From sequence record PV340548.1: a DNA stretch of 50,509 nt, one strand, 5' to 3'. Below are positions 8,200 to 9,614 of the stretch, one piece after another. Both the position numbers and the translations under genes were made by a program. The DNA comes from Escherichia phage PhiR11_1_star. The notes beneath the pieces were generated by a model, which saw only the letters and a list, made by a program, of their open reading frames with translations, was not told where the DNA came from and did not search any database. Position 1 is the first letter of the stretch; every line of letters starts with the position of its first letter.

Positions 8200-8229
8200 G
8201 CAAAGAAAACCCGGCGCTGAGGCCGGGTT
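8200..8229 (-). terminator. rho-independent terminator at the end of the cI/rexA-like/rexB-like operon
   Basis: GC hairpin AACCCGGC-GCTGAG-GCCGGGTT followed on the minus strand by a T-run; overlaps the rexB-like stop codon. Confidence 0.6.
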
Positions 8230-8719
8230 ATTGTTGCTTGAGTTTTTCGTTATAAATCTGTTTCAGCTTTATTGGTATGAAAAAAGAGCATCCAAATGAA
8301 ATTATGCTTAGCCAGCATATAATAAACTCAAGTGCCAGACTCAGGTTGGTCACAGGCGGCTTGCTTGCTAAGATTTTACTGGTGTCTCCTGGTGGCAGCA
8401 GCATGTAGTAGAAGAATATTAAGCACAAGACTGTAAGATAGAGGTAAAAAAGCATCATGTAACGAGAAAACCGAATTTCGAATTTCCTCTTAGTTGCATA
8501 CTTTTCTGATCTTGATTTACCTTCTGTAAACGATGCTACGTCTCCACTTGTGGTTATAACAAGTAACAGAAACCCTGTTAATATTGAAAATATATTTGCC
8601 ACAAGTCCAAGCAACTCTTTGTTATATCTAACCTTATCATGTAAATAATAAGTTAATACAAGAGAAAGGCAGATAAAAAAGATTATGGAAAAAATATAAC
8701 TCCAATCTTTACCTCTCAT
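8228..8719 (-). CDS. RexB-like polytopic membrane protein (immunity-region exclusion module, distal gene)
   Basis: 163-aa ORF with several hydrophobic helices (IFSIIFFICLSLVLTYYL, ILTGFLLLVITT, LYLTVLCLIFFYYMLL, FIICWLSIISFGCSFFIPI), AT-rich, at the lambda rexB position. Confidence 0.55.
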   Translation of the reverse strand: MRGKDWSYIFSIIFFICLSLVLTYYLHDKVRYNKELLGLVANIFSILTGFLLLVITTSGDVASFTEGKSRSEKYATKRKFEIRFSRYMMLFYLYLTVLCLIFFYYMLLPPGDTSKILASKPPVTNLSLALEFIICWLSIISFGCSFFIPIKLKQIYNEKLKQQ

Positions 8720-8756
8720 TCACACCTCCCCCTTTGGTTATACGTACGACCCTCCA

Positions 8757-9614
8757 TTATAGTATGAAATCCTTGAAGTGCTCAAGAATTTCCTTAGCGT
8801 GTTCCGCTTTTATGGTGGTAGAGCCATACTTTCTTGTGTAATAATCTTTTTTTGTTTTGATTTCAGAGCTTTTGATCGCTTGGCCTTTTGATGTTGTGAT
8901 GAAGAACTCTTCCGATAATTCATCAATGATCAGGCTTGGATTTTTGTTCGCAATATTTAAGAGTTTTGGGTTATGTCTCTTGTCAAGAGTCAGAAGCCCA
9001 TAGAAAGAGTTGTCATCATCTTGCTCTTTCTCAAATAATCTTGACAAAGCTTCTTTAGCTTTTCCAGTGATACCTAATGATGTTGCTTTTGCCTCTTCTA
9101 GATCTTCTTTTGTTGTTTCAATACTTAGGCTGATGGAGCGTATTCCATCTTTTATTATCTTGCCAAGTGCATCTTTGTTGAGTTTCTCAGAAATATTCAC
9201 ATTGATATTCATGAGGCTAAATATTTTTTTTAACTTAGATAAAGGATGAGTTCCTGATAGTTGAAAAATTGTTAGAATATTGCTTTCTGTTGCAAGCAAG
9301 AATATATGGCATTTATCATAATTATCTACATCCTGCAAATCGTTATGGTCTCCATCTTTTGGAGTTACCGGGACCAAAGCTTTGGGCTCATAGAGTGTTA
9401 TCCCAGCAAAGATTTGGTCATCGTTAACTATTAGACTTTTTATCCTTGCCCGAGTGTCGTTAGAGTACTCAAAGTCATAGTTTTGTTTGAAATTTTCGCA
9501 TGTCTTCAAGACATCTACAAATGAGCATCCGTCATTACAATCTACTTCAAATAGCGAAGTTTGTACTTTTTTGGGGAAATCTTTATTTTTTTCTTCCGAA
9601 AAATTCATTGGCAA
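8757..9614 (-). CDS. RexA-like cytoplasmic protein (immunity-region exclusion module, proximal gene)
   Basis: 285-aa AT-rich ORF immediately downstream of cI on the same strand, size close to lambda RexA (279 aa) but clearly different sequence. Confidence 0.5.
   Translation of the reverse strand: MPMNFSEEKNKDFPKKVQTSLFEVDCNDGCSFVDVLKTCENFKQNYDFEYSNDTRARIKSLIVNDDQIFAGITLYEPKALVPVTPKDGDHNDLQDVDNYDKCHIFLLATESNILTIFQLSGTHPLSKLKKIFSLMNINVNISEKLNKDALGKIIKDGIRSISLSIETTKEDLEEAKATSLGITGKAKEALSRLFEKEQDDDNSFYGLLTLDKRHNPKLLNIANKNPSLIIDELSEEFFITTSKGQAIKSSEIKTKKDYYTRKYGSTTIKAEHAKEILEHFKDFIL

Follow-up and report, generated by a model that had tools for sequence, protein, structure and literature searches.

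Does the pair of genes that Escherichia phage PhiR11_1_star carries in the place of lambda rexA-rexB constitute a Rex system? No abortive-infection system has been known for longer than RexAB, and both its trigger and the coupling between RexA and RexB are still open questions. The sequence analysed here (PV340548.1; 50,509 nucleotides, hereafter the window, to which all positions refer) has two genes, which we call A and B, downstream of the repressor gene cI; an initial annotation had described them as a divergent RexA/RexB-like module. We consider it reasonably probable that A-B is a RexAB-type two-component prophage module, consisting of a sensor and a membrane effector. The likeness on the A side comes from the predicted RexA/RdgC fold of the protein, and on the B side from the number, order, and charge pattern of its membrane segments.

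The gene pair lies on the cI strand, and both its coordinates and the homology breakpoints agree with the placement first proposed for it. On the left, the sequence is homologous to that of lambda, ev017, and 2B8 up to and including the hairpin of the terminator tImm (AACCCGGCGCTGAGGCCGGGTT); the homology to these three phages stops directly past the hairpin, at a shared TTA (the complement of a stop codon). On the right, homology with phages that have the same repressor starts at the cI stop codon, at about position 9706. The cassette is thus bounded by the cI stop codon and tImm, and it fills the place that rexAB has in lambda. The cI gene is 97-98% identical in ev017, 2B8, and Stx2-1717, each of which has a different cargo downstream. 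Phage ev017 carries a DUF1828 protein and a 185 amino acid protein that match the PADLOC candidate system PDC-M24 (4.7e-10 for the B component, 4.8e-4 for the A component), 2B8 carries an NYN-domain protein with weak HEC-09/NYN matches, and Stx2-1717 carries a 173 amino acid hypothetical protein; lambda itself has rexA-rexB, and PhiR11_1 has A-B. Because the flanks are fixed and the cargo varies, the stretch from 8231 to 9705 is an exchangeable cassette in a hotspot for accessory genes that would be expressed in the lysogen. Its base composition had also been remarked on before: across the two genes the guanine-plus-cytosine (GC) content falls to 0.32-0.37 (8350-9700; 34-37% for the segment), whereas cI and the replication genes have 0.46-0.52, and A and B were 29-38% GC in every locus examined.

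The layout of the cassette (Table 1) resembles that of an operon. The open reading frame (ORF) of A extends from 8757 to 9614 when read from a TTG codon, giving the 285 residues originally listed, but the ATG at 9608 has an AAGGA Shine-Dalgarno sequence 7 nucleotides upstream and is the start annotated in GenBank (PV340547), yielding 283 residues. The start of B is preceded by a GGAGG Shine-Dalgarno sequence, and 37 nucleotides separate the two genes. The terminator that was first noted at the end of the module is indeed there, as a G+C-rich hairpin followed by a T-run (8229..8208, minus strand) homologous to tImm, which in lambda comes right behind rexB. A terminator scan predicted none in the 99-nucleotide gap between cI and A, nor elsewhere across cI-A-B before the tImm hairpin; because the three genes are also co-oriented, A-B probably shares the cI transcript from the maintenance promoter in the lysogen, like lambda rexAB. 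By position, the pair is placed for such expression here, following cI and ending at tImm, and it is found in prophage contexts elsewhere. A promoter-like site within the 3' end of A is present at the equal position in two close relatives (loci L042 and L043); loci L048 and L049 have non-homologous promoter-like sites near B, and L003, L005, and L045 have none. Lambda PLIT transcribes rexB alone, and the site in A is a possible, if weak, candidate for its counterpart. No Rfam RNA family was matched within the cassette. Plus-strand ORFs of 40-79 codons do occur in it but are regarded as incidental, given the conservation of the two minus-strand genes and the purifying selection on them.

Table 1. 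Positions in the window of the A-B cassette, its parts, and its immediate neighbour.
Feature	Position	Strand	Remarks
cI repressor gene	9708..10403	-	HTH_3 and Peptidase_S24 Pfam matches, GenBank annotation; heads the presumed cI-A-B transcript
cI-A spacer, 99 nucleotides	9609..9707	-	Includes AAGGA, the ribosome-binding site of A; terminator scan negative
Gene A	8757..9608	-	Soluble protein of 283 residues, predicted RexA/RdgC fold; presumed sensor
Candidate promoter TTGAGC-18-TATAAT	8756..8785	-	10/12 match; within the 3' end of A, 39 nucleotides ahead of the B start
Gene B	8228..8719	-	Predicted inner-membrane protein of 163 residues with four transmembrane segments, the second almost invariant (ANIFSILTGFLLLVI); presumed effector
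Intrinsic terminator hairpin, lambda tImm homologue	8208..8229	-	Overlaps the stop codon of B and marks the left cassette edge
Exchangeable AT-rich cassette	8231..9705		tImm hairpin to cI stop codon; from breakpoints, alternative cargo, and GC profile

Protein A is as uncharacterised as was first supposed, and so is its partner: both are hypothetical in all records carrying them, and no annotation or defence-system model covers either one. A has no match in Pfam, PADLOC, or NCBIfam, and PHROGs places it in phrog_23561, a class of unknown function. BLASTP of A against lambda RexA found nothing, in keeping with the earlier remark that the sequences differ from lambda, and profile searches of the PDB sequences revealed no Rex link. 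A weak match to CD2 (E = 0.003) was discarded as spurious. No transmembrane helix is predicted in A, hydrophobic helices being seen in B only, which bears out its description as a soluble protein.

It is in the predicted structure that A resembles RexA. The AlphaFold model, built from a 14-sequence alignment, has a mean predicted local distance difference test score (pLDDT) of 82 and a predicted template modelling score (pTM) of 0.74, with a sole disordered stretch at residues 82-96. Its elements follow the order of seven strands (13-141), four strands with four to five helices (145-239), and a C-terminal helix (268-282). RexA consists of a globular domain split in two (residues 1-139 plus 248-279) and a dimerisation domain (143-234; PMC11077077), and the A model agrees with this two-domain layout, in which the split domain (a seven-stranded sheet) is interrupted by the dimerisation domain (a four-stranded sheet and four helices) and closed by a C-terminal helix. 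Structural matches of the A model include RdgC (2owl, 7.9), CHL4 (7.0), CENP-N, the epimerase 3oh8 (6.6), and IML3 (6.2); the relatives of RexA listed by Adams et al. 2024 are RdgC, CHL4, IML3, and the Corynebacterium glutamicum epimerase 3OH8 (PMC11077077). RdgC was aligned by Foldseek over the whole length of A at E = 9.5e-3 and a probability of 0.84; the global template modelling score (TM-score) was low, as is expected for a hinged two-domain protein. We concluded from the model that the fold of A is of the RexA/RdgC type, with RexA the nearer of the two, common descent being left unsettled by sequence. The A family has a motif, V-T-P...D-L..(I/V)-E-N-x-D-x-x-H-x-F, around a loop of low confidence and variable length that joins strands 4 and 5, which we infer to be the position at which the tip domain is inserted in RdgC.

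Protein B is polytopic, as had been stated from its sequence: its AlphaFold model (pLDDT 75.5) has helices at residues 6-30, 34-62, 70-107, and 125-162, and a hydropathy scan places transmembrane segments at 8-26, 37-55, 90-108, and 132-150, compared with 8-26, 42-60, 84-102, and 116-134 in lambda RexB. Both proteins have a basic N-terminus, and their most basic segment is the loop between the second and third transmembrane segments (TM2 and TM3), with eight lysines or arginines in B and five in RexB. The positive-inside rule therefore predicts that the N-terminus, the central loop, and the C-terminus all lie inside. Model and hydropathy thus agree with the architecture of RexB (about 140-165 residues, four transmembrane segments, and a basic TM2-TM3 loop), with closely matching helix positions. 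TM2 is nearly invariant in 23 sequences down to 39% identity, the conserved positions being N33, L37, and A41-N-I-F-S-x-L-T-G-F-L-L-L-V-I55; aromatic and polar residues in TM3 and TM4 (F80, R83, F84, Y87, Y94, Y105, S145, P149, K153, and E158) are likewise invariant. Such conservation would fit a constrained helix-helix or pore interface.

A number of results weigh against calling A-B a Rex system, and most of them concern sequence. Neither A nor its relatives match the RexA models PF15969 and PDLC02339, to which lambda RexA scores 1e-97 (Pfam) and 9e-110 (PADLOC), and hhalign of the A family against a profile of 17 distinct RexA sequences from IMG/VR loci gave a probability of 0.2%; against Sbash gp30/31, the probability was at most 0.2%. 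B does not match the RexB models PF15968 and PDLC02340 (lambda RexB scores 8.6e-61 in PADLOC), PHROGs and NCBIfam gave it no Rex link, and hhalign against RexB profiles of 13 and 29 sequences gave a probability of 0.15-0.2%. Foldseek returned no BFVD match to the B model at E <= 0.001, nor did lambda RexB figure among the top 50; a 165 amino acid Sbash protein (the length of gp31) came only at rank 45, with a TM-score of 0.49 and E = 1.7, although small helical bundles separate families poorly in fold comparison. A is also acidic (pI 5.6), versus a basic RexA (pI 8.6), which as a homodimer binds DNA non-specifically, and DNA binding by A is therefore not assured. The top BFVD match of the B model was an uncharacterised 172 amino acid siphovirus protein (TM-score 0.62), and BLASTP of B against lambda RexB found nothing. 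B is thus RexB-like in architecture only; no sequence or fold link was found. The likeness to RexA/RexB in the initial annotation is consequently upheld by the predicted fold of A and the topology of B, but not as homology of B to RexB; the profile and structure comparisons that it had proposed yielded no profile link to either lambda protein, whereas a RexA-type fold was predicted for A. As it fails the sequence models of both RexA and RexB, A-B would not be a member of PF15969/PF15968, and it can most aptly be characterised as a RexAB-type variant, new and orphan in sequence, that current defence-finder models miss.

The family is rare. Positions 8100-9720 are 100% identical in Escherichia phage PhiR11_1 (PV340547.1), whose recorded host is E. 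coli K-12 MG1655, and in phage 2G7b, and these two were the only ones of 50,697 phage records in which tblastn found gene A. Of the complete E. coli genomes, numbering 5,426, seven have the full segment, and no plasmid match to the gene A segment was found. A forms 16 clusters at 90% identity among 5.8 billion proteins, and B has 30 clusters, Pantoea and Serratia being included in the latter; a profile search with A of 1.84 billion representatives of 50% identity clusters recovered 18 proteins only. Homologues of A occur in Escherichia, Salmonella, Edwardsiella, Citrobacter, Budvicia, Morganella, Xenorhabdus, Providencia, Proteus, and Yersinia, and more distant ones in Haemophilus and Mannheimia, although no A-like loci from the last two were found in scans of viral contigs and genome contigs. 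One Haemophilus parainfluenzae member of the A family (P0101, in the P0053 cluster; profile E = 3e-18) is labelled in UniRef as a DUF4747 family protein, and a DUF4747 motif was reportedly cited by Gentile et al. in 2019 for both Sbash gp30 and lambda RexA. The label was not reproduced with Pfam or NCBIfam, and Sbash gp30 has no Pfam match; we therefore rejected this bridge and retain it as a lead only.

Wherever its loci were recovered in the Enterobacterales, through either gene, B followed A directly and in the same orientation; this held for 27 of 27 loci, the two genes being about 18-40 nucleotides apart, and the set includes Pantoea prophages in which A is only 25% identical (E = 2e-32). 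The ratio of nonsynonymous to synonymous substitution rates (dN/dS) was 0.13 for the closest usable pair, whereas in diverged pairs synonymous sites were saturated and the proportion of nonsynonymous differences (pN) was 0.19-0.5; these comparisons indicate that both genes are under purifying selection. Homologues across many genera, down to 25% identity, together with a dN/dS of about 0.13, mean that A and B are real genes and not chance ORFs. The pair therefore agrees with the gene arrangement of Rex-type systems in the broad sense (lambda, Sbash, CarolAnn, and RexABpp), in which a gene for a cytoplasmic protein of RexA fold is directly followed by, and co-inherited with, a gene for a small four-segment membrane protein.

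The same constancy bears on whether the fold of A might reflect nothing but an ancient RdgC-like DNA-binding scaffold, so that A-B would be a membrane-tethered modulator of recombination or replication, or a toxin-antitoxin-like pair in which A restrains a toxic B. We judge this unlikely. A has no RdgC Pfam match, and an obligate, small partner with four transmembrane segments is a hallmark of Rex-type systems and not of RdgC. The addiction version further encounters a natural mutant: in locus L042 (IMG/VR UViG_2744054454_000007), the A homologue (4113-4961 of that record) is 87% identical over its full length but has an in-frame TGA at the family-invariant G204, whereas B is intact, behind a different cI-like repressor. 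Were A an antitoxin, its loss next to an intact B should be lethal; a broken A would be tolerable if A activates B, and the scheme in which A triggers B thus fits better.

The genomic contexts of the pair are varied. It lies downstream of cI-like repressors in the window, in L039 (an IMG/VR copy of the same phage), in L042, and in Budvicia L003; in Pantoea L008-L010, L048, and L050-L057, where it is on the opposite strand, flanked by the Q antiterminator and the holin/endolysin genes; inside a tail-gene cluster in L045 and probably in Morganella L005-L007; adjoining umuDC in L044; convergent with a repressor gene in L047; and in L043, on an island, beside a large gene that, from its N-terminal sequence, may be PAAR-like. 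At least four different prophage accessory slots are thus occupied, the pair moving between them as a unit, and such variety looks like the behaviour of an autonomous moron or defence cassette.

It is partly for this reason that we think it improbable that the main role of A-B is to regulate the lysogeny-to-lysis switch of its own prophage, with exclusion of other phages absent or incidental. The idea has a clear precedent: lambda RexA stabilises the lytic state and is counteracted by RexB, Adams 2024 and Thomason 2021, as cited in PMC11077077, show an effect of RexA on the bistable switch that does not depend on RexB, A shares the predicted RexA/RdgC fold, and in four of the loci above the pair directly follows a cI-like repressor. 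Most of the loci found, however, are away from immunity regions, for which autonomous cargo is the better explanation, and in same-cI phages the slot holds unrelated defence-candidate cargo. The two roles are of course not mutually exclusive and could coexist.

Exclusion could also be exerted at the envelope. A homologue of the superinfection-exclusion protein SieB is encoded at 6925-7506 (plus strand; PF14163, 4.9e-22; phrog_1301), between ral/ea10 and N as in lambda, and together with A-B this would give the phage two or more functions of the exclusion type around N and cI. That exclusion genes cluster here, and that B is a predicted small inner-membrane protein in a prophage accessory slot, might suggest that B blocks DNA entry or receptor function in the manner of Sie proteins, without cell arrest, and that A is an accessory. 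Entry blockers are usually solitary, however, and a co-inherited cytoplasmic partner of 283 residues with a DNA-binding fold would go unexplained; we regard this as very improbable.

The RexAB-type reading can be compared with known systems. With lambda RexAB (PF15969/PF15968; PDB 8TWQ), A-B shares slot, strand, gene order, the near-equal positions of the four membrane segments, the basic central loop, and possibly a promoter located within the first gene, at its 3' end; the sizes also mirror one another, as had been noted, at 283 and 163 residues here versus 279 and 144 in lambda. It differs in that neither protein is similar by BLASTP, hidden Markov model, or hhalign, that A is acidic and has its own conserved strand 4-5 loop motif, that the invariant TM2 motif of B is peculiar to it and its central loop and C-terminal tail are longer, and that the pair also occurs outside immunity regions. 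RexABpp of Pseudomonas putida prophage P1 (PP_5643/PP_5644) is a validated case of a divergent pair acting as an abortive-infection system, with the membrane protein as effector (PMC12894663). Like A-B, it lies downstream of a cI-like repressor and has a four-segment partner without detectable RexB homology; unlike A, which was undetected by the profile tools used, RexApp was found by HHpred against RexA with 98% probability (PMC12894663), and RexApp is larger (about 37 kDa with a His tag), with two extra genes between the pair and the repressor. Sbash gp30/gp31, for which a defence function gives a precedent (PMC6426596), CarolAnn gp44/gp43, and Butters gp30/gp31 likewise combine a cytoplasmic protein with an adjacent, small, four-segment membrane protein expressed from the prophage, the latter property being predicted for A-B from its placement. 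A sensor-to-ion-channel mechanism was proposed for these actinobacteriophage systems, as it is here for A-B, but their cytoplasmic partners are of 337-372 residues, their hosts are Actinobacteria, and hhalign found no sequence link to Sbash gp30/31.

RdgC (PDB 2OWL) has its tip domain inserted where the A model has the variable strand 4-5 loop, but A does not match its Pfam model (PF04381), and RdgC, a ring-forming dimer, is chromosomal, stand-alone, and lacks a membrane partner. According to a 2025 survey, some lambdoid phages have RdgC homologues to the left of cI, and a Rex-like role was suggested for them (PMC12315714); A, in contrast, is not recognisable as RdgC by sequence. By analogy, A-B appears closest in function and architecture to the Rex-like systems Sbash gp30/31 and CarolAnn, and especially to P. 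putida RexABpp; its exclusion function is inferred. In the searchable literature, no paper on the pair was found under the phage names PhiR11_1 or 2G7b, or as RexA-like/RexB-like.

If A-B does work in the manner of RexAB, a cI-A-B transcript would run from the maintenance promoter to tImm in the lysogen. A would dimerise and, during superinfection, bind DNA or a phage-made protein or DNA-protein cue; once triggered, it would switch on B, possibly through the central loop of B. Defence by Sbash gp31 is lost when substitutions are made in its central loop (PMC6426596). B might then oligomerise, with the polar face of TM2 (N42, S45, and T48) lining a pore, and the membrane would be depolarised or permeabilised, macromolecular synthesis would halt, and the infection would abort. 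A may additionally affect the lysogeny-lysis switch of its own prophage, as lambda RexA does. A bolder proposal, which we hold tentatively and think somewhat more likely to be wrong than right, is that Rex-type systems are modular: a conserved sensor with the RexA/RdgC fold would be combined with unrelated four-segment effectors, B, with its ANIFSILTGFLLLVI helix, would be an effector class of its own and not a diverged RexB, and the cI-tImm slot would swap whole sensor-effector pairs.

Several other features were noted in passing. In the three Morganella morganii loci (L005-L007), a csy1-csy2-csy3-csy4 set (type I-F-like) lies about 4 kb downstream of A-B, at about 13.4-16.5 kb of the loci; neither cas1 nor cas2-3 was seen inside these 17-kb loci, and the upstream genes include a primase (DUF927) and phage tail-chaperone genes. 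The Morganella element may be a prophage or a satellite with several defence cargos. In the window, the sole Rfam match at gathering level is Lambda_thermo, the cIII thermoregulator, at 5637-5695 (minus strand; 88.5 bits), which overlaps the start of a 54-codon cIII-like ORF (5518-5682). The gam region (5034-5675, minus strand) has five A's at 5416-5420, versus four in L039. The extra A shifts the gam frame past about codon 12, leaving the Gam N-terminus in a 50-codon ORF (5299-5451) and the C-terminus joined to an upstream frame as a 213-codon ORF, which is annotated as Gam in GenBank; the frameshift could be either a sequencing error or a real mutation.

The kind of system described here is not new, divergent Rex-type systems being already an established idea, and since the family is rare the practical consequences are modest. 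What A-B would add is a second version of Rex in a lambda-like phage with K-12 as its recorded host, having the same operon position and the same predicted sensor fold but an unrelated sequence and possibly an unrelated effector. It thereby offers a natural comparison for the essential features of such systems, among them the conserved loop motif of A and the central loop and TM2 of B. Because the PADLOC, Pfam, and NCBIfam models all miss the A-B family, Rex-type systems are probably under-counted, and searches of the cI-tImm slot that combine structure with synteny should recover more of them. The location in the rexAB slot, the recorded K-12 host, and a possibly RexB-unrelated effector together provide a direct experimental handle on Rex sensing and signalling; if the modular proposal is true, exchanging partners between A/B and RexA/RexB in the T4 rII system could reveal how the sensor is coupled to the channel.

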